Assembly: GCA_002995645.1 (NCBI GenBank)
Contig: PUHO01000017.1
Span: 918 to 64,917 of the forward strand
Length of the DNA: 64,000 nucleotides
Source of the DNA: SAR324 cluster bacterium
GTDB lineage: Bacteria; SAR324; XYD2-FULL-50-16; HCM1
Direction: 5' to 3'
The first letter of the stretch is position 1; each line of letters opens with the position of its first letter. Shown here one piece after another: positions 4,269 to 64,000 of the stretch. The position numbers were made by a program, and so were the translations under genes. Under the pieces are notes generated by a model, which worked only from the letters and a program-made list of their open reading frames with translations, ran no database searches and was not told the origin of the DNA.

Positions 4269-4340
4269 GGCAACTTCACCGTAAGTCTGTATTGAAATAG
4301 GCTTCCTTCTTATATAAATCCGCCAAGTGATTTACCTGTT

Positions 4341-36434: not shown

Positions 36435-36477
36435 ATTAGACGTACTTTTAATAAGAAATAAGGATTTTTTATAACAT

Positions 36478-36949
36478 CGCCACTTGTCTATTCATATTAG
36501 TACTAACTACTATGCCAATAGTAGGGATAGGCAAAGTTATTTCCTTTATTTTAGTACTATATTTACGTTACTAGTTTCGTAAAAGAAGTTTTAGTATAAA
36601 CTTACGAGTTGTCTATTTAAATCAGTGCTGATCACTATGCCAATAGTAGAGGGGAAAACTAAAGGCATAGGAATAGGCAACCTTACGTTACTAGTTTCGT
36701 AAAAGAAGTTTTAGTATAAACTTACGAGTTGTCTATTTAAATCAGTGTTGATCGCTATGCCAATAGTAGAGGGGAAAACTAAAGGCATAGGAATAGGCAA
36801 CCTTACGTTACTAGTTTCGTGAAAGAAATTTTAGTATAAAGTTGTCAGTTGCCTATTTAAATCAGTGCTGATCACTATGCCAATAGTAGAGGGGAAAACT
36901 AAAGGCATAGGAATAGGCAACCTTACGTTACTAGTTTCATAAAAGAATG
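36478..36949. repeat. about 4 tandem units (120-bp period) derived from an internal panB segment, directly downstream of the panB stop
   Basis: TTACGTTACTAGTTTCG recurs at 36563, 36683, 36803 and 36923. The unit core CTATGCCAATAGTAGAGG..GGAATAGGCAACCTTACGTTACT resembles panB 37115-37170 (CTATACCAATAGTAGGAATAGGTAGTTCTTGCGTTACT). Confidence 0.85.
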
Positions 36950-37726
36950 TTATTTAGAAAGAATCTCTTTTGCCTTAACTTTTTCTTGATAAGATTGAAG
37001 AGCTTCTTGCATAGCCTCACCAAGATGAGCTTGCACTGTAGCGTGTCTAGGTAAGAAATCAGGATTAAGATGAAACAAATCGTGAAAGACTTGCACTTGT
37101 CCGTCCGTATCGGCACCGGCACCTATACCAATAGTAGGAATAGGTAGTTCTTGCGTTACTTGTTTTGCAAAATCATGAGGTATGTTTTCCAATATAAGAA
37201 AACATATACCAGCATTAACAAGCGCTTTTGCGTCTTCCATTAAAGTTGTTTGTTGCTCCTGTGTTTTTGCTTGTTTTTGCCATCCGCCAAGTTGATGCAA
37301 TGATTGTGGCGTTAAACCAAGATGCCCAAATACGGGGATACCTGCTTGCGTAAGTGCTTTAACTTCCGGGCAAATAGATTTCCCGCCTTCAAGTTTAACT
37401 GCTTGAGCACAGGTCTCTTTCATAATGCGAGCGGCATTAAGCATAGTTTGCTCTATACTAATATGATAAGTCATAAAAGGCATATCGACAACAAGAAAAG
37501 CCGATTGATTTGCACGAGAAACTAATTTGCCATGATAAATAATTTCATCTAATGTAACAGGCAAAGTTGAATCATTACCTTGTACAACCATGCCAAGCGA
37601 ATCACCGACTAATATAATATCAACGTAACGATCTACTAAGCCGGCAGACCAAGCGTCATAGGCAGTAATCATAGCTATTTGTTGCTTACCTTTATATGCC
37701 ATTAATTCATGTTTTTGTTTTCGCAT
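36950..37726 (-). CDS. panB: 3-methyl-2-oxobutanoate hydroxymethyltransferase
   Basis: 258 aa with PanB blocks (MITAYD, ILVGDSLGMV.QG, VKLEGG, GHLGLTPQS). Confidence 0.95.
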   Translation of the reverse strand: MRKQKHELMAYKGKQQIAMITAYDAWSAGLVDRYVDIILVGDSLGMVVQGNDSTLPVTLDEIIYHGKLVSRANQSAFLVVDMPFMTYHISIEQTMLNAARIMKETCAQAVKLEGGKSICPEVKALTQAGIPVFGHLGLTPQSLHQLGGWQKQAKTQEQQTTLMEDAKALVNAGICFLILENIPHDFAKQVTQELPIPTIGIGAGADTDGQVQVFHDLFHLNPDFLPRHATVQAHLGEAMQEALQSYQEKVKAKEILSK

Positions 37727-41560: not shown

Positions 41561-42173
41561 GCTTACGATCTAAAAGTGAGCAGAAGAGCGCTTAAGTAGT
41601 CGATAAGTTGCATTAAGAGGCAAATCTACCTGGCAAGTAAAAGCGGGGCAAATTGCTTGCTTTATTCGCTAATTAGAAGTAATAAGCAAAGCAATAAATT
41701 TAGTGCTTTTTACTTTGTTTTATATTATACAAGGATTAGTTGCAAAGTATGTTAAAAAGAAGCAATAGGCTTACGAGCTAAAAGTAAGAAGAGCGCTTAA
41801 GTAGCCGATAAGTTGCATTAAGGGGTAAATCTACCTGGCAAGTAAAAGCGGGGCAAATTGCTTGCTTTGTTCACTAATTAGAAGTAATAAGCAAGACGAC
41901 AAATGTAATGCTTTTTATTTTATACTCTACAAGAATTAGTTGCAAAGTATGTTAAAAGCAATAGGCTTACGAACTAAAAGTAAGAAGAAGAGCGCTTAAG
42001 TAGCCGATAAGTTGCATTAAGAGGTAAATCGCACCGGCAAGTAAAAGCGGGGCAAATTGCTTGCTTTGTTCACTTTTCAAGATAACGTAAAAAGGCTTTA
42101 CAAAAGGATAAAGTAACCCGTCCATTACACGAATAAAGTGATTTCCAAAATTAGAAGTAATAAGCAAAGCAAC
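41496..42173. repeat. three tandem units (205-bp period) made of the lnt 3' end plus the 3' end and an internal piece of the convergent yggT-like gene
   Basis: TA(G/A)TGCTTTTTA(C/T)TTT starts units at 41496, 41701 and 41906. Each carries ...GTTGCAAAGTATGTTAA..AGCAATAGGCTTACG(A/C)..., which is the lnt stop region. Each also carries ...GCGCTTAAGTAG(T/C)CGATAAGTTGCATTAAG...AAAAGCGGGGCAAATTGCTTGCTTT, which is the yggT-like 3' end. Confidence 0.85.
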
Positions 42174-48087: not shown

Positions 48088-49059
48088 ATGTCTGTTATAA
48101 AGCAAATTCAAGACGTCCTTGCTTTAGAAGAAAAAACTTTGCAAGACGTTCGCCTTCAAGTTAATTCTTCTTTTGAAAAAGCAGTTAACTTATTATATAA
48201 TACAACAAATATAGTTTGTTTTTTTGGCGTTGGAAAATCCTATCATATTGCGGCAAAAATAGCTTCAACGTTAGCTTCAACAGGAACAAGGGCAGTTTGC
48301 CTTCATCCTTCGGAAGCGCAACACGGTGATCTTGGCGTTGTTCGTGAAAAAGACACTGTTGTTTTATTAAGTAAATCAGGGGAAACAGAGGAAATGCTTC
48401 AGCTGCTTCCGGCATTACGTTTATTACAATGTTCTATTATCTCTATAGTTAGCTCTAAAGAATCAAAGATTGCTAAACTAGCGGATATTGTGTTATACGT
48501 CCCTGTTAAAGAAGAAGCTTGCGCCTTAAAGTTAGCGCCTACTTGTTCCACTACGGCAATGTTAGCCGTTGGCGATGCCCTTGCGGTTGTGTTAATGCGG
48601 AAAAAGAACTTTACAAAAGAAGAATTTGCTTTACGCCACCCTGCCGGTTCTCTTGGTAAGCAGCTTTTATACACTGTTAAAGACGTTATGAGTAAAGACG
48701 AAATGAATCCTACCGTTTTATTATCCGCTTCGTTTGAAACGGTGCTTGATCTTATTATGCAATATAAAATGAACGCCCTTTCTGTTGTGAACGAAGCAAA
48801 CGAATTTCAAGGCATGATTACAAGTTATGATATTCGTAAAACGTTAAAACAATATTTACATACAAAAACAAATCTAGAAGAGCAAACTGCCGCCACTATT
48901 ATGAATAAGCAAGCTACTACCATTGACGTTACTATGCTTGCGCTACGTTGTTTTGAAGCAATGAAACGAAAACAGCTACCTAAAATAGTACCGGTTTTAC
49001 AAGAGGGCAAAACAGTAGGCATGCTTAGTATAGATCAACTTTTATTAGTCGGCTTTTAA
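48088..49059 (+). CDS. kdsD: arabinose-5-phosphate isomerase (KdsD/KpsF/GutQ family; SIS + CBS pair)
   Basis: 323 aa with a SIS-domain pattern (GVGKS..IA.KIASTLASTG, SKSGETEE) and C-terminal tandem CBS. Adjacent to a lipid A acyltransferase gene. Confidence 0.85.
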   Translation: MSVIKQIQDVLALEEKTLQDVRLQVNSSFEKAVNLLYNTTNIVCFFGVGKSYHIAAKIASTLASTGTRAVCLHPSEAQHGDLGVVREKDTVVLLSKSGETEEMLQLLPALRLLQCSIISIVSSKESKIAKLADIVLYVPVKEEACALKLAPTCSTTAMLAVGDALAVVLMRKKNFTKEEFALRHPAGSLGKQLLYTVKDVMSKDEMNPTVLLSASFETVLDLIMQYKMNALSVVNEANEFQGMITSYDIRKTLKQYLHTKTNLEEQTAATIMNKQATTIDVTMLALRCFEAMKRKQLPKIVPVLQEGKTVGMLSIDQLLLVGF

Positions 49060-49061
49060 CA

Positions 49062-49994
49062 ATGAAACGTATATTTTATATTCTCATAGGACATATTTTA
49101 GCATTTCCTTTTTATATGCTAACAATTATACTTCCCTATAAAGCGCATATTACTATAGGAAAGTTACTAGGTCTTACTTTGTATAAATGTAAATTAAGAC
49201 GCTCTATAGTTGAAAAAAATCTCCAAATCGCATTTGAAAAAGAGAAAACAAAAGCAGAGCTGAAAGAAATTTGTAAACAAAATTATATAGTTAACGGTAT
49301 TCAAATATGGATATATGCTATACATGCTTTACGTTTTACAAATAAATACCTTGCCGCTATTTTAGATCTAGAAAAAGCGTGGGAACTGGTAAGAGAAACC
49401 ACAAAAGATGATCCCGGATTTGTTGGTTTAAATATGCACACTACTAGCTTGATTTCAAGTTGGCTTACGTTAACACTACCAAAAACAAAGACACAAGAGC
49501 TGTATTATTTATATGCTTCACGTAATGTTTTTATAGAGTATAAATATTCTAAGTCAGCATATAAAAGAGGAAAGAAACCAATTAATCGCTATAATAAAAA
49601 GCAAATGATGGATTTAATACGGAACTTTAGAAATGATAATACGGTGATTTATACGGCGTTAGACACGAACGTGCCGAATAAAGATTTGTTTGTTACGTTT
49701 TTTTCAAAGCAAGTTTCTATTGGTAAACCTATGTTTGAATTGATTATAAAGCATAAAAAACCGGTTTACCTGATGCATGCTGAATACCAAGGGAAAAATC
49801 AGCCTTCACCTTATATTATACAAATGCAGAAACTTAATTATACTATTACAGGTGATAAAGAGAAAGACGTACAAAATCTTGCATCTTTATATACTAGTAA
49901 AATAGAAGAGTATGTAAAAACCTGTCCGGAGCAGTATTATTGGGTTCATAGACGTTTCAAAACAAGACCGGACGGCGAAGCCCCAAGGTATTAA
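49062..49994 (+). CDS. lipid A biosynthesis (Kdo)2-lipid IVA acyltransferase, LpxL/HtrB family
   Basis: 310 aa with an N-terminal TM anchor and the C-terminal family motif PEQYYWVHRRFKTRP. Confidence 0.7.
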   Translation: MKRIFYILIGHILAFPFYMLTIILPYKAHITIGKLLGLTLYKCKLRRSIVEKNLQIAFEKEKTKAELKEICKQNYIVNGIQIWIYAIHALRFTNKYLAAILDLEKAWELVRETTKDDPGFVGLNMHTTSLISSWLTLTLPKTKTQELYYLYASRNVFIEYKYSKSAYKRGKKPINRYNKKQMMDLIRNFRNDNTVIYTALDTNVPNKDLFVTFFSKQVSIGKPMFELIIKHKKPVYLMHAEYQGKNQPSPYIIQMQKLNYTITGDKEKDVQNLASLYTSKIEEYVKTCPEQYYWVHRRFKTRPDGEAPRY

Positions 49995-50092
49995 GTAAGT
50001 TTATAAAAACTACGACAACATATGCAAACAATTTTTTAACGTGCCTTTTTTTATGTAAAATCATTTTGTTCCTGTTATTTATTAAATATCTG

Positions 50093-50121
50093 TTTACAAA
50101 ATGTTAATATATTGTTATATA
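50093..50121 (+). promoter_or_regulatory. candidate sigma70-type promoter upstream of cas9
   Basis: TTTACA (50093-50098), a 17-nt spacer, then TATATA (50116-50121). GGAGG at 50142-50146 precedes the cas9 ATG. The A+T-rich context means this may be a chance match. Confidence 0.3.
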
Positions 50122-50149
50122 AAGATAAAGTTATTATATATGGAGGAAA

Positions 50150-53100
50150 ATGGAATATATTCTTGGCATAGACATAGGAACGGCATCAGTAGGCATTGCC
50201 GCTTATGAACTAGATAATGATAAAGATAATAAGACAACAAAAAAATTATTACATTTAGATAGCTATATCTTTAAAGAACCAACAGAGCACGGACAATCTG
50301 GCTATGCTCTTAAAAATCAAACAAGACGGGAAAGAAGAATGGCGCGCCGTCAAACCCAGCGAACACAAAAGCGATATAAAAAAATATATTTATTTTGTAA
50401 ACAACATGGATTTTATGGCAAAGACGGCACAGATGATTGCCAACAAGACGTTATTACCTTACGTGCTAAAGCAGTCAGTGAAAAAATTCCTCTAGACGGA
50501 TTAGCAAAAGTTTTGCTTCATATGGCTAAAAATCGCGGGTATTACGGTGATTTTAAACGTGCTACAGACGGAACAGTCGCTAAGTCAATCCAAAAAGTAG
50601 AAGCAGAGATTCAAAACAAAGGCGTAAAGACGTTAGGGCAGTTATGGTATAAGCGCAGAGAAGACGCTAAGCAAGAACGTAAAGCATGGCGTAATATTGA
50701 GAAAACCGGAACTTATACAAGTCGTAAGATGACAGAAGAAGAGTTCAACTTAATTTTGCAAGAACAACAAAAACACCACCCTATTCTTAACGATAATATT
50801 AAGATTGTTAACCCTTGTATTTTTCACGACCTTTATAAAGCCGGCGAGTCTGTTCCTATGGCAGACGTGTTAGCGCATATTTTACTATACCAACGTCCTT
50901 TAAAATGGGATACAGAAACAATAGGTAAATGTCCTTTTCATGAAGATGAGCTACGCGTTTCACGTGCTTCGCCAATTTTCCAAGCGTTTCGTTTAGAACA
51001 AACGTTAGCTAATTTACGTTATAAAGAACTTAATTCTAAAAATGAAGATAAACAAAAAGCGTCTTCTTGGCAGCACTTTTCAGCAGAACAGTTACATGCA
51101 TTGCGACTTTTATTAAATCAGCAAAAAGAAGCTTCATGGAGTAAAGTATATGCTACGCTTAAACTAGATGACAAAGAAGTTAAAATTAATTTTGATCGTC
51201 GTCCTTCAGAAGATAAACCTTTATCAGGAAACGTAACGAATTACAATATGAAAACTTTAAAGCTTACTGATAAATGGGAAGCTTTAAACGAACAAGATAA
51301 AGAACTTGCAATGGCAATTGTTGCTAATATAAGCGATCCGGAAGCGTTAATATTGCCTGAAATGGTAGATTGTGAAAATCTAGAAGAGCTTGTACTTGAA
51401 GGTAGCGAGAAATACAGCTTGCCAATAGCTAACCTAGAACAGGTTATGACTTTTATACAAGCTATAGCTAATCATAAGAAATTAGGGACAGTTACGCAAA
51501 TGGGCTTTACTGCTGGACGTGCATCGTATGGTCATACAACATTGAAAGAACTTATTGCTCTTATGCAAGACGGTTTAGCTCCTGATGAAGCGACCGAGGC
51601 ATTACGTAAAAAATATAATAAAAGTGTTAAACAAGACGCCCATTTAGAATTATTAGACCCGCTTGCTCAATACTTACAAGGCGATGATTTACGCAATCCT
51701 GTTGTCAAAAAATCATTAGAAGAGTTTCGTGTTAGCTTTAATCATGCTATTCGCAAATGTAACAAACAAGGAGGCAAATTAACGCGTGTAGTTATAGAAA
51801 TGAGTCGTGATATGAAGCAATCTATTAGCGATCGTAGCGAAGATGAAAGGGAAATGGGTAAACGTCGCGCTATGAATCAAAGGATTTTGAAAGAGCTAGA
51901 AAAACACGGGCGAGCACTAGTAGGGAAGACTGATATTTTACGATATAGATTATATACAGAGCAATGGCATCAGTGTGCGTATTGTGGGAAAAAATTCGGT
52001 TTAAATGAAATCTTTGGTTATAATGCAGAAATAGATCACATTATCCCCCGTTCTAAAGGCGGAACAAATAGACAATTTAACTTAGCTTTAGTTTGTCGTG
52101 AATGTAATCAGAAAAAAACGAATCTTACACCTTTTCAAGCTTATGAATCGCATATTTTTTCTGATTCTCAGTGGGCTAGTATTATGAGTCTAGCTAAATC
52201 TTGGATTCCAGACGATAAACATACGCAACTAGAAGAAGATAAGTATAAAGCTAAGAAAGGAAAAAATTACGATAATCAAATGCGCGCTATTTTATTAGTG
52301 AGTAAAAAAATACCGGAAGAACGAACTAATACGTTTAATGATTCGCAAAATCAAGAAACTGCATGGGTAGGTCGTATAGTACGTGATTGGGTAGGAACGG
52401 TATGTGAAGACGTTCGTGTAACAAGAGGAAGTATTACAGCTCATTTGCGGCAAATATGGGGTGTAGATCAAATTTTGCCTGAGTTACGTAGACAAGAAGG
52501 AAAACCGCTTTTGAATGAAGATAAAGGATTAATTACAGAACAAGAATATAAAGCGTTTATATCTAAACGAGATGAGGTAACAAAACAAGAATTAGAAACA
52601 CGTCATTATTTACATAAGTTTGATAAACGGTGCGATCAACGTCATCATGCTATTGATGCGGCTGTCATTGCACAATCTACTACTTCTATTTTGCAACGAG
52701 CCACCGATCATCGTAAAAAATATGATTCGCTTTGGAAAACGACTCTTTATTTTCCAGCTAGTTATTATAATGCTCATAAAGATGAATATAAAGCTTATCG
52801 CGAAGATTATTTTACAAGTAAAGCCGGTAAGCAATGGGTAAAGATAAAAGTGGAAAAATTTAATCCCGGGAAGCCTCATAATAATTTTGTACTCAATTTG
52901 AAACAGGCTTTACTTCATTATACAGTATGGTCAAAGCCGGATCGCTTTGCGTCAGGTAGCTTTTTTCAAGAAAATCCATCAGGTTACCGTACGTTTAATG
53001 ATGAGCCGGCATTAACGCAGCGTATTACATTACGTGATCTATATGATAAATGTTGTAAAATGAAAGCTAAACAAAAAGATATAGAATCAGATCAAGATAT

Positions 53101-53866
53101 TACTGAAAATCATTTGAAAGTTTTCTTTCATTATATTATTGGTGATAATTTACGTACTTACTTAATCGGTAAAGTTAAAGAACGATTAAACGAAGGTATG
53201 AGTTTTCAAGAAGCTTTACTAGGTAAAGGCGTCTCATTAGAAGAAAATACAGACGGAACAGATGAAGATAAAATAGAATCCTTTCTTCCAGACGGTAGGC
53301 AAGACGGAATTTATTTTCCAGAAAATACGCAAAATCGTTTACATAAACTATATTATTGGCAAGGTAATTATAATCCTATACAGCATAAAAGCGTTATATA
53401 TGGTGAGAAAGAAAAACAACGAGCTATATGGGTTGCTAATAATTATGCAGCATTAAAAGCTAACGTAGAAACAAAATCATGGAAGTTTATTTCCCAAGCT
53501 GATTTTGAACAAGAAGTATATCAATATGAATCACCAAATAAAGATAGTAAACAAAAACGTGTTTATAAAGGAGGTACGTTTAAGCAAAACGAAATTATTT
53601 TTTTCAAAAGTCAAATGATTTTTCATACTGAAAGTAAACAATTTTATATTATTACAGGGTTAAATAGAGCGCATAATTATATAGAAGCTATTCTTACTAA
53701 TGAAGATTATTCTGCCTTTAGTAAAGCAATAGCACAAACAGGCTATGTACATACAAAAAATAAGCGTGCTGGTGTTACTTTTACTAAGTCAGTTATTCCA
53801 ATTCTTATCCCTGTTCACTCAAGGGAAGATATGGTTCGTATAAAAAAAGAATACGGTATAGCATAA
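50150..53866 (+). CDS. cas9: CRISPR-associated endonuclease Cas9 (type II; II-C-like gene content)
   Basis: 1238 aa. Contains RuvC-I ILGIDIGTASVGIA, the arginine-rich bridge helix RRERRMARRQTQRTQKR and RuvC-II VVIEMSRD. Also HNH EIDHIIPRSKGGTNRQFNLALVCRECNQKK and RuvC-III RHHAIDAAVIA. Followed by cas1 and cas2 only. Confidence 0.95.
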   Translation: MEYILGIDIGTASVGIAAYELDNDKDNKTTKKLLHLDSYIFKEPTEHGQSGYALKNQTRRERRMARRQTQRTQKRYKKIYLFCKQHGFYGKDGTDDCQQDVITLRAKAVSEKIPLDGLAKVLLHMAKNRGYYGDFKRATDGTVAKSIQKVEAEIQNKGVKTLGQLWYKRREDAKQERKAWRNIEKTGTYTSRKMTEEEFNLILQEQQKHHPILNDNIKIVNPCIFHDLYKAGESVPMADVLAHILLYQRPLKWDTETIGKCPFHEDELRVSRASPIFQAFRLEQTLANLRYKELNSKNEDKQKASSWQHFSAEQLHALRLLLNQQKEASWSKVYATLKLDDKEVKINFDRRPSEDKPLSGNVTNYNMKTLKLTDKWEALNEQDKELAMAIVANISDPEALILPEMVDCENLEELVLEGSEKYSLPIANLEQVMTFIQAIANHKKLGTVTQMGFTAGRASYGHTTLKELIALMQDGLAPDEATEALRKKYNKSVKQDAHLELLDPLAQYLQGDDLRNPVVKKSLEEFRVSFNHAIRKCNKQGGKLTRVVIEMSRDMKQSISDRSEDEREMGKRRAMNQRILKELEKHGRALVGKTDILRYRLYTEQWHQCAYCGKKFGLNEIFGYNAEIDHIIPRSKGGTNRQFNLALVCRECNQKKTNLTPFQAYESHIFSDSQWASIMSLAKSWIPDDKHTQLEEDKYKAKKGKNYDNQMRAILLVSKKIPEERTNTFNDSQNQETAWVGRIVRDWVGTVCEDVRVTRGSITAHLRQIWGVDQILPELRRQEGKPLLNEDKGLITEQEYKAFISKRDEVTKQELETRHYLHKFDKRCDQRHHAIDAAVIAQSTTSILQRATDHRKKYDSLWKTTLYFPASYYNAHKDEYKAYREDYFTSKAGKQWVKIKVEKFNPGKPHNNFVLNLKQALLHYTVWSKPDRFASGSFFQENPSGYRTFNDEPALTQRITLRDLYDKCCKMKAKQKDIESDQDITENHLKVFFHYIIGDNLRTYLIGKVKERLNEGMSFQEALLGKGVSLEENTDGTDEDKIESFLPDGRQDGIYFPENTQNRLHKLYYWQGNYNPIQHKSVIYGEKEKQRAIWVANNYAALKANVETKSWKFISQADFEQEVYQYESPNKDSKQKRVYKGGTFKQNEIIFFKSQMIFHTESKQFYIITGLNRAHNYIEAILTNEDYSAFSKAIAQTGYVHTKNKRAGVTFTKSVIPILIPVHSREDMVRIKKEYGIA

Positions 53867-53954
53867 TAAAATTATGGCAAACAATCATATTATTACTTTA
53901 TCTTCTCCAGCTTATATACATGTTGATTTAAAACCTGTTGTTATTGAAAATAAA
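53722..53954. repeat. left 233-bp direct repeat (cas9 3' end + 7-nt spacer + first 27 codons of cas1)
   Basis: Aligns colinearly, without indels, to 56307..56539 (offset 2585 bp). I counted about 20 mismatches by hand. Confidence 0.9.
53874..53954 (+). pseudogene. orphan 5' fragment of cas1 (27 codons)
   Basis: MANNHIITLSSPAYIHVDLKPVVIENK compared with the genuine Cas1 N-terminus MANDHIITLSSPAYIHVDSKRVVIENK (56459..). Beyond this it runs into unrelated cassette sequence and stops after 46 codons. Confidence 0.85.
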
Positions 53955-54003
53955 AATAATTATAAGACTACTTATAACGAAAGAATGGAAAAAGGAATGT
54001 TCT

Positions 54004-55506
54004 ATGAAGATTAATGTAAATAATACAAAAAAAATAGTTTTTTCAGAAAAAGAGGCTATCGATATATTTCAAATGTTAAATCCCTATTTTGAAGACAATG
54101 AGAAATTTTTATTAGAATCTTTAAGTGGACCAAAAAAAGATTGTAAAAGTTCTATAATAGGGCTTTCTCCTATTTTAAACCTTAGAGTTTCAAATAAGAA
54201 AATATATATTTCTTCTACATATCTGTTAGATAGTATAAAAAAACAATTAGAAGAAAAGGTTGAAATCAAAGAAAAAGGAGAAGAACTACAAATAGCAATA
54301 CAAAATATTCAAGAACTTTACTTTACAATGAAAGAAATAGAGAATATTTTTATTCAAAAAAAACAAATAAAAGGTTTAGAGTCATTAGGTTGGTTTGGTT
54401 ATTTTGGTTATGATACTATTTTTTATATAGAAAATATCAAACAAAGTATTCCAAGAGATTGTGAGATCCCAGAAATAGAACTTTCAATTTATAGTACGAT
54501 TCTCAATTTTGATATAAAAACTAAAAAAGTAGAACTTTATCATAGTTCAATTAAGGAAGTAAATAATGATAAAAATATTAATTTAATTGAAAAAATATTG
54601 GTAGATGAAAAAAAGGAAATTGTTGATACAATTTCAAATGAAAAATTCAAATTTAATGTCACGCCAACAGTAAATAAAGAAAAATACAAAGAATGGTTTA
54701 AGAAAGTTAAACATCATATAGATATTGGGGATATCTATCAAATCCAAATAGGTCATGCACTAAAGATAAAAAGCAATAAACCGCCTTATCTTACCTATTT
54801 AGATATGAGAGAAAAAAATCCTTCTCCTTATATGTATTTCTTTACAACAAACACAGGTTTAACTTTAATAGGAGCTAGTCCTGAAGTTTTTATTAATATT
54901 GATAATGACAAAAAACTAGTTATGAGACCTATTGCAGGGACTATAAAAAAAGGAAATTCTCAAATTGAAACTGAAAATAATAGAAAAACATTATTAAGTG
55001 ATGAAAAAGAAAAAGCTGAACATTTAATGCTTGTAGATTTATGTAGAAACGATATTGCAAGATGTTGCATTCCTCAAACGCTAAACGTTGATGAGCTTAT
55101 GATTTTAGAAGAATATTCTCACGTCATTCATATTGTTTCTGATATTCATGGAACAGTAGAAACAAATTTAACTAAATATGATGTTATTTCAAATACTTTT
55201 CCAGCAGGAACGATGACAGGAACGCCTAAAGTAAGAGCTATTGAGTTAATAGAAGAAACTGAAAACTTAGAAAGAGGCACTTATGCAGGAACAATCGGAT
55301 TTTTTGGATTTAATGATTTTGTAATTTCAGCCCTTTGTATAAGAACTGCTAGTTATAGAGATAAAGAGTATTCTATCAGAGCATCTGGAGGAATTGTAGA
55401 AGACTCTACGGCTCTTGGAGAATGGCAAGAAACGATTAGTAAACTAAGTTCACCGTATTTAGCTATAACAGGGAGGGAGTTAAGAAATGAAGATTTTATT
55501 AATTGA
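54004..55506 (+). CDS. anthranilate synthase component I-like chorismate-utilising enzyme (TrpE family; a PabB role not excluded)
   Basis: ORF 53938..55506. I prefer ATG 54004 (MKINVNN..., AAAGGAA upstream), giving 500 aa. TrpE-type motifs: FLLESLSG, NPSPYMYFF..GASPE, RPIAGT (Ala, not the Lys of E. coli-type PabB), LMLVDLCRND, PAGTMTGTPKVRA and GGIVEDS. Confidence 0.85.
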   Translation: MKINVNNTKKIVFSEKEAIDIFQMLNPYFEDNEKFLLESLSGPKKDCKSSIIGLSPILNLRVSNKKIYISSTYLLDSIKKQLEEKVEIKEKGEELQIAIQNIQELYFTMKEIENIFIQKKQIKGLESLGWFGYFGYDTIFYIENIKQSIPRDCEIPEIELSIYSTILNFDIKTKKVELYHSSIKEVNNDKNINLIEKILVDEKKEIVDTISNEKFKFNVTPTVNKEKYKEWFKKVKHHIDIGDIYQIQIGHALKIKSNKPPYLTYLDMREKNPSPYMYFFTTNTGLTLIGASPEVFINIDNDKKLVMRPIAGTIKKGNSQIETENNRKTLLSDEKEKAEHLMLVDLCRNDIARCCIPQTLNVDELMILEEYSHVIHIVSDIHGTVETNLTKYDVISNTFPAGTMTGTPKVRAIELIEETENLERGTYAGTIGFFGFNDFVISALCIRTASYRDKEYSIRASGGIVEDSTALGEWQETISKLSSPYLAITGRELRNEDFIN

Positions 55507-56065
55507 TTCATATGATAGTTTTGTTTATATCATAAAAAATTATATAGAACGTTTAGGTCACGAAACTCATATTGTAAGGAATGATAAAGTTAAATTAGAA
55601 ACGTTACATCAATATAATTTAATTATATTAGGTCCGGGTCCGGGGCATCCTCTTGAATGTGGCTATCTTGAAATTATAAAAAAAGTTGAAGGGGAAATTC
55701 CTATTTTAGGTGTTTGCTTAGGTCTACAAGCTATTGGTTGTTATTATGGTTCTAAAGTTGTTAGAGCCGAAAAAAGACTCCACGGAAAAACTAGTTTAAT
55801 AAAAAATGATCAAAAAGGATGTTTTAAAAACTTGCCTTCTATTTATGAAGTGGCAAGATATCATTCTTTAATTATTGAAAAAATAGAACCTAATCAAGAA
55901 ATTATATGTAGTGCTACCTCTGTAAATGATAATTATATTATGGGGGTAAGGCATAAAACACATAGCATCGAAGGTGTTCAGTTCCATCCGGAAAGTATAA
56001 AAAGTAATTATGGATTACAACTTATAGAGAATTTTATAGAAAATTCAAAAAAAGGGAGTCTTTAA
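55487..56065 (+). CDS. class I glutamine amidotransferase, TrpG/PabA type (anthranilate synthase component II-like)
   Basis: 192 aa that overlaps the upstream gene by 20 nt. Contains LLIDSYDSF, the nucleophile block GVCLGLQAI and the HPES histidine block (GVQFHPESI). Confidence 0.9.
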   Translation: MKILLIDSYDSFVYIIKNYIERLGHETHIVRNDKVKLETLHQYNLIILGPGPGHPLECGYLEIIKKVEGEIPILGVCLGLQAIGCYYGSKVVRAEKRLHGKTSLIKNDQKGCFKNLPSIYEVARYHSLIIEKIEPNQEIICSATSVNDNYIMGVRHKTHSIEGVQFHPESIKSNYGLQLIENFIENSKKGSL

Positions 56066-56094
56066 TAATTATTATTAAAAATAAGAACTATAGA

Positions 56095-56451
56095 ATGTTA
56101 CTTGGATTTTTAGCATGTTTATTATGGTCAACAGGATTTGTTGGTGTTAAGTTTAGATTAAAATACATAGATTCTCCTTTACTTTTTGCAGGAGAAAGAT
56201 TTTTTCTAGCAGGTCTTTTTATTGCTCCCTTTTGTTGGGGAAAAGATTTTAAAATTATTATGTATATGACTATATTTAATACAATTTTAGGTTATTTTGC
56301 TTATGCTAAAGCAACAGCACAAACAGGCTATATACATACAAAAAATAAACGTGCCGGTACTACATTTAAACAATCAATCATTCCAGTTCTTATCCCTGTT
56401 CACGCAAGGGAAGATATGGTTCGTATAAAAAAAGAATACAGTATAGCATAA
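56095..56451 (+). pseudogene. chimeric remnant: internally deleted EamA/DMT-transporter fragment fused in frame to a duplicated Cas9 C-terminal tail
   Basis: The first about 70 aa (MLLGFLACLLWSTGFVGVKF...RFFLAGLFIAPF...IFNTILGYFAYAKA) look like pieces of an EamA transporter that would normally be about 290 aa. The last 44 aa (AQTGYIHTKNKRAGTTFKQSIIPVLIPVHAREDMVRIKKEYSIA) parallel the Cas9 C-terminus. Confidence 0.75.
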
Positions 56452-56539
56452 TAAAATTATGGCAAACGATCATATTATTACTTTATCTTCTCCAGCTTAT
56501 ATACATGTTGATTCAAAACGTGTTGTTATTGAAAATAAA
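56307..56539. repeat. right 233-bp direct repeat (duplicated cas9 3' end + 7-nt spacer + genuine cas1 start)
   Basis: Partner of 53722..53954; see that feature. Confidence 0.9.
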
Positions 56540-57427
56540 GGTAAAGACCCCATGTTTTTTGCACCTCATGATATTGCCGTGCTTATTCTCGATCATCCGG
56601 CTCTTGTGTTAACACATGAAGTTTTTCGTGTATTAGCAGAAAGTAATGCTATTGTTCTATCTTGTACACGTGAACATTTGCCTGATACTATGACTATTCC
56701 CTTGTTTAAGAATAAGCAGGGAGCACGTAATGCATTTTATCAAATTAAAGCAATGAAAAACGGCGTTTATAAAAAAGCGTGGCAACAAATAATCCAATCT
56801 AAATTATACGGACAGGTTTATTGTGCAGAAAAGCTTGCGTTACCTAATTTATATTATTTGTATGATCGTGCCAAAAAAGTTACGCTTGATAATGCTTATG
56901 AACAAGAGGCATTTGCCGCAAAACTGTATTGGCAAGCTATATTTAAACAAATTGAAGGAGCTGATCGCCGTTATAAACAAGGAGCAGAAGATATTATTAA
57001 TACAAGCTTGAATTATGGTTATGCTGTTGTTCGTGCTATGGTTGCAAGAAGCCTTTGTGCGCACGGTTTAGTGTTAAACTATGGTGTCGGTCATATACGT
57101 AAAGATAATCCTTTTAATTTAGTAGAAGATTTTATTGAACCCTATCGCTTTCTTGTTGATTCAATTGTGCTTCCTGGTATTATACAAGGTAAGATAGTCG
57201 GCGATGAGCTTTCTCCTATAACGAAAAGATATATTTTATCTCAAATTGTAGAGTTTCAGCCTGTTTTAGGAAAGGCAACTTATCGCCTTTTACATGGGAT
57301 AGATAAAACTATTACTAGCTTTTGTAAGCTATTAGAAGTAGGTCGCGGTCAAATTGAATTGCCAAACAAACCGCAAAAAGGAAGACCAAGTAAAACCTTT
57401 CCTACTTTGAAGCATACAGTTGTATGA
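56459..57427 (+). CDS. cas1: CRISPR-associated endonuclease Cas1 (type II)
   Basis: 322 aa. Cas1 blocks SLNYGYAVVRA, GVGHI and LVEDFIEPYR (metal-binding His/Glu/Asp) are intact. Its stop overlaps the cas2 start (ATGA). Confidence 0.9.
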   Translation: MANDHIITLSSPAYIHVDSKRVVIENKGKDPMFFAPHDIAVLILDHPALVLTHEVFRVLAESNAIVLSCTREHLPDTMTIPLFKNKQGARNAFYQIKAMKNGVYKKAWQQIIQSKLYGQVYCAEKLALPNLYYLYDRAKKVTLDNAYEQEAFAAKLYWQAIFKQIEGADRRYKQGAEDIINTSLNYGYAVVRAMVARSLCAHGLVLNYGVGHIRKDNPFNLVEDFIEPYRFLVDSIVLPGIIQGKIVGDELSPITKRYILSQIVEFQPVLGKATYRLLHGIDKTITSFCKLLEVGRGQIELPNKPQKGRPSKTFPTLKHTVV

Positions 57428-58011
57428 AAACAAGTTTCAAAATTATGTGGGTTCTTGCAACTTTTGATTTACCTGTAAAAACGAAACTAGAACGTAAACG
57501 TTATATGCGTTTTCGTAAACAACTTCTTGCAGAGAACTATTTACACTTACAGTTTTCTGTATACTTAAAGCACTTTCCTACGTTTCATGCTGCTCAATCT
57601 AATGTTACTAGATTAAAACATAGTATCCCACCAAATGGAAAAGTATGCTTTTTTTATCTTACAGATAAGCAATATAGCATGACGGCAAATTACTACGGAC
57701 CTTATATACAAAGGGAAGCTTTGCCTCAAAAGTTAACGCAAGCTCTTTTCTTTGATAATGAACAAATAACAATGGACGGAGCATTAGAAGAGGACGTAAC
57801 GAAAGTTACTAATGAAATGGAGCAAAAGTTTTCTATAGAGCAAGTAATTGGAGAAAGTGAAGAAGAAAGTAATATAGAGCAACAAGTAACGTTAACTGAA
57901 TTATGGGATCAAAACGAGGTAGAGCCTGTTACTATACAAAGTACGCAAAAGAAAAAGAGAAACAAAAAGCGATTGTCTCATCAAAGCACAAATCAGCAAA
58001 TAAAATTTTAG
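57424..58011 (+). CDS. cas2: CRISPR-associated endoribonuclease Cas2 with an about 95-aa C-terminal extension
   Basis: The N-terminal about 100 aa are type II Cas2-like (MWVLATFDLPVKTKLERKRYMRFRKQLLAENYLHLQFSVYLKH...GKVCFFYLTDKQY). The tail is acidic and ends with a basic KKKRNKKR patch. Confidence 0.85.
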   Translation: MKTSFKIMWVLATFDLPVKTKLERKRYMRFRKQLLAENYLHLQFSVYLKHFPTFHAAQSNVTRLKHSIPPNGKVCFFYLTDKQYSMTANYYGPYIQREALPQKLTQALFFDNEQITMDGALEEDVTKVTNEMEQKFSIEQVIGESEEESNIEQQVTLTELWDQNEVEPVTIQSTQKKKRNKKRLSHQSTNQQIKF

Positions 58012-58030
58012 TATATGACTAAAGGTAGTA

Positions 58031-58170
58031 TATAAAATAAAAGACTCCATTTACAGAAGCCTTTTATTTTTAGATTGTAATGATATGAAATATCTTATCT
58101 ACAGAGTAAGCTTACGCTATCTCCTTATTACCGAAGGCGTGTTTTCTTAAATAGTATATAAGTATAGTAC
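58031..58170 (-). ncRNA. tracrRNA-like unit, copy 1 (cas2-proximal)
   Basis: The minus strand reads ...ACUAUUUAAGAAAACACGCCUUCGGUAAUAAGGAGAUAGCGUAAGCUUACUCUGUAGAUAAGAUAUUUCAUAUCAUUACAAUCUAAAAAUAAAAGGCUUC-UGUAAAU-GGAGUCUUUUAUUUUAUA. Its 5' part is complementary to the minus-sense repeat GUUCCGAUUGUGCUUUCUUAAAUAGU, with an internal loop. AAUAAGG follows the anti-repeat, as in known tracrRNAs. The terminal hairpin works with G-U pairs only on the minus strand. Ends are approximate. Confidence 0.5.
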
Positions 58171-58215
58171 TATATTTATCAAATAAAAGATAATTTTATA
58201 GTAGGAAATATTTTA

Positions 58216-58355
58216 TTACTAAAATAGAAGACCCCATTTTGTAGAAGTCTTCTATTTTTAGATTGTAATGATATGAAATATCTTATCTACGGAGTAAGCT
58301 TACGCTATCTCCTTATTACCGAAGGTGTTTTCTTAAATATAGTATACTAGTATTA
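58216..58355 (-). ncRNA. tracrRNA-like unit, copy 2 (array-proximal; better full-length anti-repeat)
   Basis: The minus strand reads ...UACUAGUAUACUAUAUUUAAGAAAACACCUUCGGUAAUAAGGAGAUAGCG...AUAGAAGAC-UUCUACAAAAUGGG-GUCUUCUAUUUUAGUAAU. By hand it pairs with about 29 of 36 positions of the minus-sense repeat, including G-U pairs, with a 2-nt bulge. The 69-nt core matches copy 1 with one mismatch. It has a perfect 9-bp terminator stem. Ends are approximate. Confidence 0.55.
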
Positions 58356-58470
58356 TATTATATATGTCAAATAAAAAATTATTTATTAAATTTAACTTTA
58401 ATTTTCAGTGTTTTTGTTATATAAAAACAGATTATTTAATAAATAAATTCAACATGCTACATATTTAGCT

Positions 58471-61400
58471 AGTCTAGCACACTATTTAAGAAAGCACAAT
58501 CGGAACGTATTTGTCCAGGTCTCCAGCCTGATTTTGAGTCTAGCACACTATTTAAGAAAGCACAATCGGAACTCATTTTTTGCGAATAATTCGCCGTTAT
58601 CAAGTCTAGCACACTATTTAAGAAAGCACAATCGGAACCAGCAAGGGAAACAGTACCTAATAATGTTAAGTCTAGCACACTATTTAAGAAAGCACAATCG
58701 GAACTATGATTTCCTTGGTAGGTTTTATAAATATAGTCTAGCACACTATTTAAGAAAGCACAATCGGAACTTTATATGAAGAAAGAGACCTACAACTTTT
58801 AGTCTAGCACACTATTTAAGAAAGCACAATCGGAACAAAGCCTTGATAACAAGCTCGGCATTGGCAAGTCTAGCACACTATTTAAGAAAGCACAATCGGA
58901 ACTCGATAAACAAAACAAATCGAGAAAGCATTAGTCTAGCACACTATTTAAGAAAGCACAATCGGAACTCAATTAACAAAACAAACCGAGAAAGTATTAG
59001 TCTAGCACACTATTTAAGAAAGCACAATCGGAACAGCCTACCTCATATCGCCCACCTTGCATTTAGTCTAGCACACTATTTAAGAAAGCACAATCGGAAC
59101 GCTTAAGTCGTGATGTTCAGAATTAATGCCAGTCTAGCACACTATTTAAGAAAGCACAATCGGAACATCGCATTGCCGATCGGTACGTACAATAAGAGTC
59201 TAGCACACTATTTAAGAAAGCACAATCGGAACTAAAATTCTTTTGTAGTTGGATTGTGTCTTAGTCTAGCACACTATTTAAGAAAGCACAATCGGAACAT
59301 AAAGTTGCGTCAAATTTAATTTTATGGAAGTCTAGCACACTATTTAAGAAAGCACAATCGGAACCTAAATATGTTACTATGAAACAACGTGCTAAGTCTA
59401 GCACACTATTTAAGAAAGCACAATCGGAACTTGTGTCCTTCTTACATTCGAAATAATTAAAGTCTAGCACACTATTTAAGAAAGCACAATCGGAACCGCC
59501 AAATAAAAAAGGATTGATTTTATAAGAGTCTAGCACACTATTTAAGAAAGCACAATCGGAACCCGCTGGTTCTCTTGCTGATTATTTCGGTCAGTCTAGC
59601 ACACTATTTAAGAAAGCACAATCGGAACAGTTACGTCTTGTTGGTGCTATTGACGACTAGTCTAGCACACTATTTAAGAAAGCACAATCGGAACGACGGT
59701 GCTGTTCATTACTTTGGTCAATTAAGTCTAGCACACTATTTAAGAAAGCACAATCGGAACGATGTACTCTATTTAGAAAGTCTTTTTCCGAGTCTAGCAC
59801 ACTATTTAAGAAAGCACAATCGGAACCGTTAACAGGTGTTAACCTGTTTAATTTAAAGTCTAGCACACTATTTAAGAAAGCACAATCGGAACTAACTAAG
59901 TATGCAAAGTTTGATTGGGACGAGTCTAGCACACTATTTAAGAAAGCACAATCGGAACTAAATAATGTTTTCATTTTTAGTCTCTTTTAGTCTAGCACAC
60001 TATTTAAGAAAGCACAATCGGAACCTACAATTTTAATTTTTGAATAAGGTTTTTAGTCTAGCACACTATTTAAGAAAGCACAATCGGAACTCTTTTCTTT
60101 TATTAAACCAGTCCTGTGTTAGTCTAGCACACTATTTAAGAAAGCACAATCGGAACAGCAAGCGGAGGTAGCTTAATTAAAGCAGTAGTCTAGCACACTA
60201 TTTAAGAAAGCACAATCGGAACATGGGATTTGAACCCATAATACCGGATTGAAGTCTAGCACACTATTTAAGAAAGCACAATCGGAACCAAGAAGGAAAA
60301 TGGAAAAAACAACTAAAAAGTCTAGCACACTATTTAAGAAAGCACAATCGGAACAAGATTACAGAGATATAGCACCGCTTGCGAAGTCTAGCACACTATT
60401 TAAGAAAGCACAATCGGAACAAGATTATAGAGACGTCGCACCGCTTGCGAAGTCTAGCACACTATTTAAGAAAGCACAATCGGAACATATCTTGTAAAAT
60501 AGCTTCAATTTCTTTGAGTCTAGCACACTATTTAAGAAAGCACAATCGGAACATAGTAGTATCAATTTCAGCTCCGCTATTTAGTCTAGCACACTATTTA
60601 AGAAAGCACAATCGGAACCCCGTACTTCTTTTATATTTTTTTCATTTAAGTCTAGCACACTATTTAAGAAAGCACAATCGGAACTTGTGGAAAACAAGGC
60701 GATGTAATAAATTTAGTCTAGCACACTATTTAAGAAAGCACAATCGGAACACTTTAATAGATCTTACATTCCCCTTACGAAGTCTAGCACACTATTTAAG
60801 AAAGCACAATCGGAACAAAGAAACGCCCATTGTTTTGGACGCAACGAGTCTAGCACACTATTTAAGAAAGCACAATCGGAACAGAGTTCATATATAGTTC
60901 AGCAAATGCTATAGTCTAGCACACTATTTAAGAAAGCACAATCGGAACAAATTATCGTTAAGACTTGCCGCAACTCCAAGTCTAGCACACTATTTAAGAA
61001 AGCACAATCGGAACTGGGGTACTTAGATAGTATATATTAAAATTAGTCTAGCACACTATTTAAGAAAGCACAATCGGAACCTTTACGAACGTCACTATTA
61101 TTTATTGTTGAGTCTAGCACACTATTTAAGAAAGCACAATCGGAACAATGCGGTGTCAAGTGTGTAGGTGTTACCTAGTCTAGCACACTATTTAAGAAAG
61201 CACAATCGGAACATAGTAGTATCAATTTCAGCTCCGCTATTTAGTCTAGCACACTATTTAAGAAAGCACAATCGGAACTTGTTTCACAAATCGCCAGTAT
61301 AGTATAAAAGTCTAGCACACTATTTAAGAAAGCACAATCGGAACAATTTTCACACCAAACAACGCGATCCCGCGAGTCTAGCACACTATTTAAGAAAGCA

Positions 61401-64000
61401 CAATCGGAACACAACAGATAGCACATGTATATAAAAAGTGAGTCTAGCACACTATTTAAGAAAGCACAATCGGAACTGTAAATTTACCTGTACGATTTAC
61501 TATTGAAGTCTAGCACACTATTTAAGAAAGCACAATCGGAACAAGATAGAAAGAAGCCCGTCTAACGACACGAGTCTAGCACACTATTTAAGAAAGCACA
61601 ATCGGAACGACTGTTCTTAAGCTTAAACTAAAGCGGCTAGTCTAGCACACTATTTAAGAAAGCACAATCGGAACCATCAGCGCTAAATGTTTCGATAAAA
61701 TAAGAGTCTAGCACACTATTTAAGAAAGCACAATCGGAACATTCCTTGTTTAATAACGCCGCCTTCTTCTAGTCTAGCACACTATTTAAGAAAGCACAAT
61801 CGGAACATGCGCCTGAAATAACGAATGCAAGCATAGAGTCTAGCACACTATTTAAGAAAGCACAATCGGAACAAGTGTGTCTTAATTTTAACTATAATTT
61901 ATAGTCTAGCACACTATTTAAGAAAGCACAATCGGAACATATTATAATGTCGTTAAGGTAGCTTAATTAGTCTAGCACACTATTTAAGAAAGCACAATCG
62001 GAACGATTGTCTTTCGCTTTTTAATCCTATTTTTAGTCTAGCACACTATTTAAGAAAGCACAATCGGAACTCTTTTAATAGCATTTTGAATGGAACCAGA
62101 AGTCTAGCACACTATTTAAGAAAGCACAATCGGAACAAATTATCATAATGAAAAGCAACCGGATCAAGTCTAGCACACTATTTAAGAAAGCACAATCGGA
62201 ACAAGGTATTTTAGCGGTCACATCTATAGCATAGTCTAGCACACTATTTAAGAAAGCACAATCGGAACTAAACCACTCATGATTATTCTTAGCTACCTAG
62301 TCTAGCACACTATTTAAGAAAGCACAATCGGAACCTGTCCACCACGTTAAAGAATAGTCATAGCAGTCTAGCACACTATTTAAGAAAGCACAATCGGAAC
62401 ATAAACTAATACCCAAAGAAGCAACGTTAAAGTCTAGCACACTATTTAAGAAAGCACAATCGGAACGCAGTAGGAGAAATTGTTGCTAGCAATGGAAGTC
62501 TAGCACACTATTTAAGAAAGCACAATCGGAACATATAAAGGAGCTCAAGAAGCTAACGCTACAGTCTAGCACACTATTTAAGAAAGCACAATCGGAACTT
62601 TGCCTGTTGGCGTTGTTCCTGATGGCATAGTCTAGCACACTATTTAAGAAAGCACAATCGGAACAAAATTCGTTTCATGATGTGTGCAGAGTATAGTCTA
62701 GCACACTATTTAAGAAAGCACAATCGGAACTCGAATTGAGATCAAAACCATTATTTTTTAAGTCTAGCACACTATTTAAGAAAGCACAATCGGAACAATC
62801 TAAATTAACAACCGGCATGCGCCATAAGTCTAGCACACTATTTAAGAAAGCACAATCGGAACGTGGTATTTTTAGCGGTGTAGGCAATGCTTAGTCTAGC
62901 ACACTATTTAAGAAAGCACAATCGGAACCGCGTGTCGGTGTCTAGCTCGTAGCACTGGAGTCTAGCACACTATTTAAGAAAGCACAATCGGAACCGATTG
63001 GAACATATAATAAATATTCAAAACAGTCTAGCACACTATTTAAGAAAGCACAATCGGAACACCTATCGGATACTGTTGTAGTCTACCTGAAGTCTAGCAC
63101 ACTATTTAAGAAAGCACAATCGGAACATATGTGCCCGCGCTTCGGGCGATAGGTGTAGTCTAGCACACTATTTAAGAAAGCACAATCGGAACATGGCTAT
63201 TGAAGCAAACACTTAACCCAAGAGTCTAGCACACTATTTAAGAAAGCACAATCGGAACAAAGCTTATAGTTTAGATAAACAAAAGAAAAGTCTAGCACAC
63301 TATTTAAGAAAGCACAATCGGAACCTTTGTTTTGATTGTGCAAATCGTAGTACAAGTCTAGCACACTATTTAAGAAAGCACAATCGGAACTCAACGCATT
63401 TTCAACGCGCTCAGTTTGTAAGTCTAGCACACTATTTAAGAAAGCACAATCGGAACTAAATAAAGGGAATGCAAGCGGCTTGTATTAGTCTAGCACACTA
63501 TTTAAGAAAGCACAATCGGAACACCTAACTATTTATTGTCTAAATATGCTGAAGTCTAGCACACTATTTAAGAAAGCACAATCGGAACTTGCGCTAGATA
63601 AATGTTGACTTGATTTTTAGTCTAGCACACTATTTAAGAAAGCACAATCGGAACAGCGCAAGCATTTGCGCTTCTTTTTTTAAAAGTCTAGCACACTATT
63701 TAAGAAAGCACAATCGGAACCTCATTATATTTTTTCGAACGGAAATTTTAAGTCTAGCACACTATTTAAGAAAGCACAATCGGAACCAAAATCAAGTACG
63801 CTATTAATCGGCAACAAGTCTAGCACACTATTTAAGAAAGCACAATCGGAACAGTTACATGATGTCGGTCAGTTGTCTGTTGAGTCTAGCACACTATTTA
63901 AGAAAGCACAATCGGAACTTGTTTTTATTTAATATTACACGTAACATTAGTCTAGCACACTATTTAAGAAAGCACAATCGGAACAAGACTCAAATAGAGA
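58471..64000. CRISPR. CRISPR array: 36-nt repeat AGTCTAGCACACTATTTAAGAAAGCACAATCGGAAC (plus sense), 30-nt spacers, 66-bp period; 84 repeats in the window and continuing past the edge
   Basis: The first repeat is 58471-58506 and the 84th is 63949-63984, so (63949-58471)/66 = 83 exactly. I noticed no variant repeat. There are 83 complete spacers plus a partial one. I infer minus-strand transcription because the repeat then reads GTTCCGATTGTGC...TGCTAGACT and pairs with the minus-strand tracr candidates. Confidence 0.97.

Follow-up and report, generated by a model that had tools for sequence, protein, structure and literature searches.

The trans-activating RNA (tracrRNA) of type II CRISPR systems is normally treated as the single-copy partner of Cas9. 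What, then, is to be made of a locus in which the tracrRNA gene appears to stand twice, head to tail? Such a locus lies at the right end of a 64,000-nucleotide stretch of DNA from a SAR324 cluster bacterium (GenBank assembly GCA_002995645.1, contig PUHO01000017.1, positions 918 to 64,917; hereafter the window, numbered from its first letter), where cas9, cas1 and cas2 are followed by two tracrRNA units and then by the CRISPR array. A preliminary description, made from the sequence alone, had noted two units of 188-bp period between cas2 and the array and had proposed that both are, or recently were, functional RNAs. Our analysis leads to the view that they are probably two tandem tracrRNA genes of the adjacent Cas9 system, separately promoted and terminated, which would form a redundant or dosage pair.

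How far does the duplication extend? Tandem Repeats Finder reports the 188-bp period at 58033-58384 (1.9 copies, 87% matches, score 551), which bears out the two units, and a repeat search pairs 58050-58196 with 58238-58384. The extent first given, 58031-58355, does hold the tandem units, but the duplicated unit, which contains a promoter in each copy, reaches about 30 bp nearer the array. A 26-nt core sequence occurs twice in the window, in these units only, with 0 occurrences expected. The parts of the two copies are as follows.

58034..58161, minus strand: tracrRNA copy 1 (cas2-proximal), largest likely transcript; nexus, hairpin 2 and terminator fold, pairs with the repeat, 13.2 bits with covariance model R1 (see below)
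58127..58161, minus strand: anti-repeat of copy 1, duplex energy -26.0 kcal/mol, with an extra 2 nt relative to copy 2
58103..58124, minus strand: nexus stem-loop of copy 1, GGAG...CUCU, with a closing G-U; AAUAAGG at 58123-58129
58071..58102, minus strand: hairpin 2 (nested) of copy 1, identical in both copies
58034..58070, minus strand: terminator hairpin and U tail of copy 1, 15 bp with two G-U pairs, whose fold on the minus strand is far superior to that on the plus strand
58153..58182, minus strand: promoter-like site of copy 1 by consensus match, TTGATA, 18 nt, TATACT, with an alternative -10 TATAGT at 58169-58174
58222..58350, minus strand: tracrRNA copy 2 (array-proximal), largest likely transcript; best R1 match in the window, fold z = -6.8
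58315..58350, minus strand: anti-repeat of copy 2, -31.6 kcal/mol, continuous with repeat positions 14-33 save for a 2-nt bulge
58291..58312, minus strand: nexus stem-loop of copy 2, GGAG...CUCC; AAUAAGG at 58311-58317
58259..58290, minus strand: hairpin 2 of copy 2, from the fold
58222..58257, minus strand: terminator hairpin with U tail, copy 2; it differs from copy 1 by four transitions, none of which breaks a pair
58341..58370, minus strand: promoter-like site of copy 2, TTGACA, 18 nt, TATACT (11/12 matches), with alternative -10s TATAAT at 58352-58362

In each unit the anti-repeat is followed by AAUAAGG, a 22-nt nexus stem-loop, a 32-nt second hairpin, a 15-bp terminator hairpin and a U tail. 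AAUAAGG stands directly after the anti-repeat in the tracrRNAs of Streptococcus pyogenes and Neisseria meningitidis as well. The motif, the nested hairpin region and the terminator with its U-rich tail were all recovered in both copies much as the preliminary description had drawn them.

Do these RNAs pair with the repeat of the adjacent array? The minus-sense repeat reads GUUCCGAUUGUGCUUUCUUAAAUAGUGUGCUAGACU, and the crRNA (CRISPR RNA) sense is the minus strand. The duplex energies of the two anti-repeats with it lie far beyond the background of 400 random 51-nt windows of the same genome (-8.8 +/- 3.0 kcal/mol, minimum -19.3), in agreement with the complementarity claimed at the outset. Co-folding of the whole units gives stable duplexes with the minus-sense repeat in both (-27.3 kcal/mol for unit 1, -32.0 for unit 2), against -10.8 and -10.5 kcal/mol for the opposite repeat orientation. 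The pairing is imperfect and involves the first 20-33 nt of the crRNA repeat. Alignment and duplex alike place the indels that distinguish the copies where they had been described: copy 1 has an extra CG (CACGCC vs. CACC) near repeat positions 8-9, and copy 2 an extra UA that forms a bulge near repeat position 25. In a window-wide ranking of complementarity by a wobble-aware Smith-Waterman alignment, copy 2 comes first (score 45) and copy 1 third (40). No other site in the window joins repeat complementarity to a scaffold, as judged by blastn-short, a motif scan and this ranking. A candidate third, degenerate anti-repeat upstream of cas9 (50066-50100) was rejected; its complementarity is below background and it has no nexus.

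The strand of transcription can be approached separately through the folds. Against shuffled controls the scaffolds reach z = -6.8 (copy 2) and -4.6 on the minus strand but only -3.4 and -1.5 on the plus strand, where the folds are poorer because several of the stem pairs are G-U. This advantage is independent evidence that the minus strand is the one transcribed, and both genes would then be convergent with cas2 and co-directional with crRNA transcription. The promoter-like sites match the sigma-70 consensus at 10/12 and 11/12 positions, with the hexamers kept in both copies. Since each unit carries both a promoter and a terminator, what was duplicated would be a complete gene. The best promoter match implies starts at about 58146 (copy 1) and 58334 (copy 2). 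Anti-repeat pairing in copy 2 persists to repeat position 33, partly through G-U pairs, which suggests an upstream start close to 58350, driven by one of the TATAAT sequences at 58352-58362.

How have the copies diverged? The 69-nt core (58069-58137 vs. 58257-58325) differs at a single base, as first reported: 58103 is A and 58291 is G on the plus strand, which exchanges the nexus closing G-C of copy 2 for a G-U in copy 1 and keeps the pair. Elsewhere the copies differ far more, in 19 of 62 columns of the upstream and promoter region, 6 of 33 in the anti-repeat and 9 of 36 in the terminator and tail. The contrast between the scaffold core (1/65) and the rest of the unit (34/131) is strong (Fisher p = 5e-6; p = 0.002 with substitutions only). 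The terminators do both fold, but the earlier statement that their stems are unrelated in sequence was wrong: they are homologous and align base for base, with four transitions in the 15-bp stem that all preserve pairing (one two-sided change, A-U to G-C, and one-sided wobble changes, G-U to A-U and U-A to U-G). Pair-keeping changes in homologous stems speak more strongly for structural constraint than would unlike sequences that both fold. The near-invariant core, the pair-keeping stem changes and the survival of promoter and terminator in both copies argue that both are, or recently were, selected as RNAs, as the preliminary description had suggested.

The anti-repeats also bear on the origin of the pair. 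They share their mismatches to the repeat: positions 8-9 form an internal loop, C13 is mismatched, and positions 27 and 29 are G-U pairs. The duplication would therefore postdate the divergence of the anti-repeat from the repeat. The pair thus appears to stem from a whole gene, about 188 bp long and already diverged from the repeat, that was duplicated in tandem, with no second recruitment of a repeat. Similar events are common in the window, where tandem duplications of 120-270-bp units with 91-98% identity occur at 1836-2406, 4070-4561, 36456-36960 and 41494-42120 (families D11, D13, D14 and D16), so this genome seems to duplicate short segments frequently. A 2.4-kb non-coding stretch at 21350-23734 (families D2-D10) holds roughly 10-14 diverged copies of a composite unit, spaced at 125-350 bp; one of them gives a weak, unstructured match to the tracrRNA model that we take as chance.

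Is such an arrangement usual among related systems? The closest Cas9 proteins in a search of 5.8 billion proteins are at most 30% identical to that of the window. The tracrRNA core pattern and the repeat were absent from the genome, metagenome and viral contig collections searched for close relatives, and the window Cas9 has no record in the contig index. Forty-eight loci of distant relatives (L001-L048) were examined, mostly from Elusimicrobia/Endomicrobia gut metagenome-assembled genomes (MAGs), with some from Alpha- and Betaproteobacteria. Comparison of the cas2-array region in relatives, which the preliminary description had proposed, was fruitful in part: distant loci mostly show a single tracrRNA there, and no close strains were found in the collections searched. 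Every array present in the relatives is found downstream of cas2, oriented as in the window, with repeats of the family GTTCC[T/G]ATT... (minus sense). In most of the loci a single anti-repeat occupies the interval from cas2 to the array, on the same strand as in the window and as a rule some 55 nt short of the array; in a few proteobacterial loci it lies upstream of cas9 instead. About 30 of these distant relatives carry one tracrRNA whose place and strand match those of the window copies.

The tracrRNAs of these relatives share the junction C-UU[A/C]GG[U/A]AA[C/U]-AAGG followed by a short nexus hairpin, in which all four pairs show compensatory changes across 22 sequences. Both window units have CUUCGGUAAU-AAGG and then a hairpin. 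The window repeat has CCG where the anti-repeat has CGG, whereas most relatives have CCU and UAGG, so repeat and anti-repeat covary. A covariance model (R1) was built from the 22 relatives' sequences with the window excluded; its calibration was quick, so that E-values are rough. Copy 2 is its best match in the 64 kb (21.9 bits, E = 1.7e-4), and copy 1 ranks fourth (13.2 bits, E = 0.057), with two unstructured AT-rich matches among those above it. The Rfam tracrRNA model gives no relevant match at E <= 1 in 49000-59000, as expected for so divergent a Cas9 clade. The identification as a tracrRNA gene is solid for copy 2, which is very probably the tracrRNA of this system, and extends to copy 1 because the two are nearly identical. 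The window copies and the Elusimicrobia/Endomicrobia-type tracrRNAs agree in place, strand, junction motif, covarying nexus and repeat family; they differ in number and spacing (one copy usually about 55 nt from the array, against two at 120 and 315 nt), in the longer window nexus (22 nt, with an inner stem) and in the second hairpin, which is unrelated in sequence.

One distant relative does carry a pair. In a Victivallaceae MAG (L025; JAZRSP010000226.1), two units of about 80 bp lie on the minus strand at 10832-10915 and 10916-11000, each with an anti-repeat, the junction motif, a nexus hairpin and a U tract. Their nexus stems, GGGCU/AGCCC and AGACU/AGUCU, differ by two fully compensatory pairs around an identical loop. 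As in the window, these are head-to-tail tracrRNA units between cas2 and the array, and the array-proximal copy pairs better with the repeat (-27.0 vs. -22.1 kcal/mol for the cas2-proximal copy). The L025 unit of about 80 bp specifies a minimal RNA that lacks the second hairpin, whereas the window unit is 188 bp. The two Cas9s are only about 29% identical, and the nearest tracrRNA subgroup of L025 (L001, L023 and L028) is single-copy, so that the two duplications are independent. Tandem Repeats Finder missed the L025 pair, and a motif scan found it; by that scan, with two loci read by eye, a tandem pair is present in 2 of roughly 35-37 loci and a single tracrRNA in every other locus with a recognisable one. 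The nearest Cas9s to that of L025 are 45% identical, and their contigs either have no tracrRNA and array beside cas2 or end too early.

More than one anti-repeat in a type II locus has been seen before. Lactobacillus gasseri has two non-identical, dispersed anti-repeats, read as an intermediate of relocation (Chylinski et al., 2013; PMC3737331), and candidates for a "second tracrRNA" have been reported elsewhere (Dooley et al., 2020; bioRxiv 10.1101/2020.09.02.279885). These cases likewise show more than one anti-repeat or tracrRNA candidate per locus, which the authors read as duplication or a second acquisition. Their copies, however, stand at separate sites (upstream of cas9; between cas9 and cas1) and their scaffolds are not identical, whereas in the window a whole gene, from promoter to terminator, is repeated head to tail with an almost identical scaffold. 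A further survey does not mention tracrRNA duplication (Faure et al., 2018/19; PMC6546382), and in the searchable literature, the coverage of which is incomplete, no account of a tracrRNA gene doubled head to tail came to light. What is new about the window pair is the organisation of a well-known component; it is no new kind of system.

Could the second copy be one of the regulatory RNAs already known from type II loci, as the preliminary description had offered? The scaRNA of Francisella novicida contains repeat-sense sequence that pairs with the tracrRNA, and tracr-L is a long isoform of the single S. pyogenes tracrRNA gene, in which a repeat-like segment folds back and 11 nt serve as a guide to the cas9 promoter (bioRxiv 10.1101/2023.03.03.530964). 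Both are extra Cas9-binding RNAs derived from a repeat or tracrRNA, and the marks of both are absent from the window units. A scaRNA-like RNA needs a repeat-sense segment, and both units are of anti-repeat sense only. The tracr-L-like possibility also failed: read-through transcripts from the last repeat to copy 2, or from copy 2 to copy 1, fold without a fold-back 5' extension and leave the anti-repeat unpaired or pair it non-specifically, and duplexes of the anti-repeats with the region upstream of cas9 (-4.1 and -8.4 kcal/mol) are at background.

How might the pair work? Both copies would be transcribed from the minus strand, each as an RNA of about 110-130 nt, and both would pair with crRNA repeats, with RNase III perhaps optional as in other type II-C systems. 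Since their scaffolds are virtually identical, both would be expected to load the same Cas9. The second gene may raise or buffer the tracrRNA supply for an unusually long array (at least 84 units), possibly with one promoter per repeat. Copy 2 would be the better-preserved "master", with copy 1 slightly weaker in its anti-repeat, nexus closing pair and -35 box. The tendency of this genome to tandem duplication would have provided the raw material, and selection would then have retained the scaffold.

Several observations weigh against this account. Transcription from the best-scoring promoter (-10 TATACT) would begin within the anti-repeat, of which some 20 nt would remain. A better anti-repeat elsewhere had been named as a potential difficulty; in the window copy 2 has none above it, but one unrelated site (42) scores above copy 1, and the array runs past the window, so that another anti-repeat may lie beyond its far end. 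The R1 match of copy 1 is not significant alone, and copy 1 falls behind copy 2 on each measure that can be taken. The identity of the core could be maintained by short-tract gene conversion, with no selection on copy 1. The collections yielded no close relative of this genome in which retention of the pair over time might show. The dosage advantage, finally, is purely something that we infer.

The foremost rival account is that copy 2 alone works and copy 1 is a neutral or decaying by-product of duplication, its core still alike through recency or gene conversion. The other tandem duplications of the window, including one at the cas9/cas1 junction, fit this, as does the lead of copy 2 in duplex energy (-31.6 vs. 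-26.0 kcal/mol), nexus closing pair (G-C for G-U), -35 box and model score; in L025, too, the cas2-proximal copy is the weaker. A flank divergence of about 25%, however, does not fit a recent event, and divergence is strongly uneven, with the edges of the identical block matching the functional scaffold. Copy 1 retains its promoter hexamers and a folding terminator, and all stem substitutions preserve pairing. We consider a non-functional copy 1 rather unlikely and lean towards copy 1 also being functional, which would give the redundant or dosage pair. A different possibility is that the copies divide the work, one serving as the canonical tracrRNA and the other, with its differently bulged duplex, as a regulator, which might tune how crRNA is loaded or how RNase III processes it, register the level of crRNA, draw in non-canonical cellular RNAs or serve as a decoy when phages interfere with tracrRNA. 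The copies do differ mainly in the anti-repeat, where two indels alter the duplex geometry, and are identical in the Cas9-binding part; tandem pairs arose twice independently in this Cas9 clade with structure kept each time, and tracr-L and scaRNA are precedents for regulatory derivatives. Yet all 84 repeats are identical, leaving no variant repeat for copy 1 to serve, neither repeat-sense sequence, nor a 5' extension that folds back, nor a match upstream of cas9 that might act as a guide was found in the units, no self-targets were found, and no positive sign of a separate role was seen. Such a division of labour is improbable. We give equally little credence to its broader form, in which tandem tracrRNA paralogues would be a recurrent, selected feature of the clade, non-equivalent RNAs whose variant anti-repeat geometry gives the second copy a distinct job; that job would be, for example, tuning of crRNA loading or processing, sensing of crRNA abundance, or, where phage RNAs hijack or titrate tracrRNA or Cas9, service as a buffer or decoy.

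Might the conserved core instead encode a peptide, or the tandem arrangement be an artefact of assembly? Nearly identical ATG-initiated open reading frames (ORFs) do run antisense to the cores on the plus strand, at 58085-58150 (21 aa, MKYLIYRVSLRYLLITEGVFS) and 58273-58350 (25 aa), beginning MKYLIY[R/G]VSLRYLLITEGVF.... Neither ATG has an evident ribosome-binding site upstream, the ORFs differ only by one non-synonymous change (R to G), relatives preserve the RNA structure and not an ORF, and the region holds every part of a tracrRNA; the small ORFs are probably fortuitous. For an artefact it may be said that the contig is metagenomic and that databases hold no second copy of the locus. The units differ, though, at 13% of positions, with indels and unique flanks, unlike the duplications that assembly produces. 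Taken together, the peptide and artefact explanations are very improbable, and two tandem tracrRNA genes remain the favoured reading.

The remainder of the locus consists of the following features.

50150..53866, plus strand: cas9, 1238 aa (TIGR01865, E = 4.7e-110; Pfam RuvC_III, Cas9_a and HNH)
56459..57427, plus strand: cas1, type II NMENI subtype (TIGR03639, E = 5.8e-54)
57424..58011, plus strand: cas2, 195 aa (TIGR01573, E = 1.8e-11, residues 8-92 only)
58385..58470, no strand assigned: spacer region from copy 2 to the array, a putative acquisition-side leader, on the basis that degenerate repeats of relatives sit cas-distal
58471..63984, continuing past the window end, minus strand: CRISPR array, 84 identical 36-nt repeats and 83 spacers of exactly 30 nt

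Neither csn2 nor cas4 was found at the cas locus, and since both are absent beside cas9-cas1-cas2 the system would be classed as type II-C-like. The window Cas2 is extended at its C terminus by about 90 aa with a high content of E, Q and K; the Cas2 proteins of relatives have 102-114 aa. Between cas9 and cas1 lie three unrelated ORFs, pabB/trpE-like, trpG-like and an EamA fragment, on a 2.3-kb insert (53938-56451). The insert is flanked by two copies of the junction of the cas9 3' end with the cas1 5' start (53695-53959 and 56280-56544, about 90% identity over some 235 bp), leaving a truncated cas1 start behind cas9 and a cas9 tail ahead of the real cas1. From this duplicated junction, the metabolic genes appear to have entered the cas operon through a duplicative event. 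Elsewhere the window also encodes LptD, Lnt and a futalosine-pathway decarboxylase, as would an AT-rich bacterium of Gram-negative type.

How does the locus compare with the well-studied type II-C systems of N. meningitidis (Nme) and Campylobacter jejuni (Cje)? The Nme repeat ends in TGCTACAAT, and in both Nme and Cje the crRNAs arise from promoters embedded in the repeats. The Nme and Cje systems likewise have cas9, cas1 and cas2 as their only adaptation and effector genes, 36-nt repeats ending in an extended -10-like box, and a tracrRNA with AAUAAGG followed by a nexus hairpin. The window repeat ends in TGCTAGACT, which resembles an extended -10 box by motif match, and those of the relatives in TGATATAAT, TGCTACAAT, TGTTAGACT or TAnnnT variants. 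The Nme and Cje arrays are read towards the end where spacers are added, an unusual polarity (Chylinski et al., 2013; PMC3737331). In the arrays of L004, L007, L012 and L037, degenerate repeats stand at the cas-distal end. Together with the -10-like repeat ends, these suggest that arrays of the clade are transcribed towards the acquisition end from promoters inside the repeats. By the same analogy 58385..58470 is probably the acquisition-side leader, the window array too would be read towards the end gaining new spacers, and each of its repeats may carry its own promoter. The differences are as plain: no database protein is more than about 30% identical to the window Cas9, the tracrRNA gene is doubled in tandem, the pabB/trpG-like insert splits cas9 from cas1, and no Rfam tracrRNA model fits either copy. 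The nearest solved structures to the window Cas9 are compact Cas9s of about 1050-1150 aa; we take the 6jdq/6kc8 structure group to be Nme Cas9.

Some further features of the array and its leader deserve mention. The minus strand of 58365-58455 can fold into an AU-rich hairpin of some length, which takes in the -35 box of copy 2. A likeness of about 45 nt (TATGTA..TGTT..TTATTTATTAAATA(A)TCTGTTT) links the region upstream of cas9 (50053-50097, plus strand) with the array leader (58424-58466, minus strand), forming an inverted repeat that flanks everything from cas9 through the tracrRNAs and could be a shared regulatory or leader motif. Among the spacers, the adjacent pairs 7/8 and 29/30 (58903-59002 and 60355-60450) are identical at 26 of 30 positions and spacers 32 and 42 (60553 and 61213) are identical, which suggests repeated acquisition from variant targets. 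A search for protospacers and a protospacer adjacent motif, meant to fix the orientation of the array, gave nothing significant in GenBank phages and, for three spacer patterns, nothing in IMG/VR; no spacer matches the window itself.

What does a doubled tracrRNA gene mean for such systems? Where arrays are very long and multiply promoted, tracrRNA supply may be limiting and under selection, and the pair could serve as a test case for tracrRNA dosage. The two copies are also a natural experiment on the variation in anti-repeat bulges that one Cas9 tolerates, and the locus defines the guide RNA of a Cas9 that is very divergent from those known.

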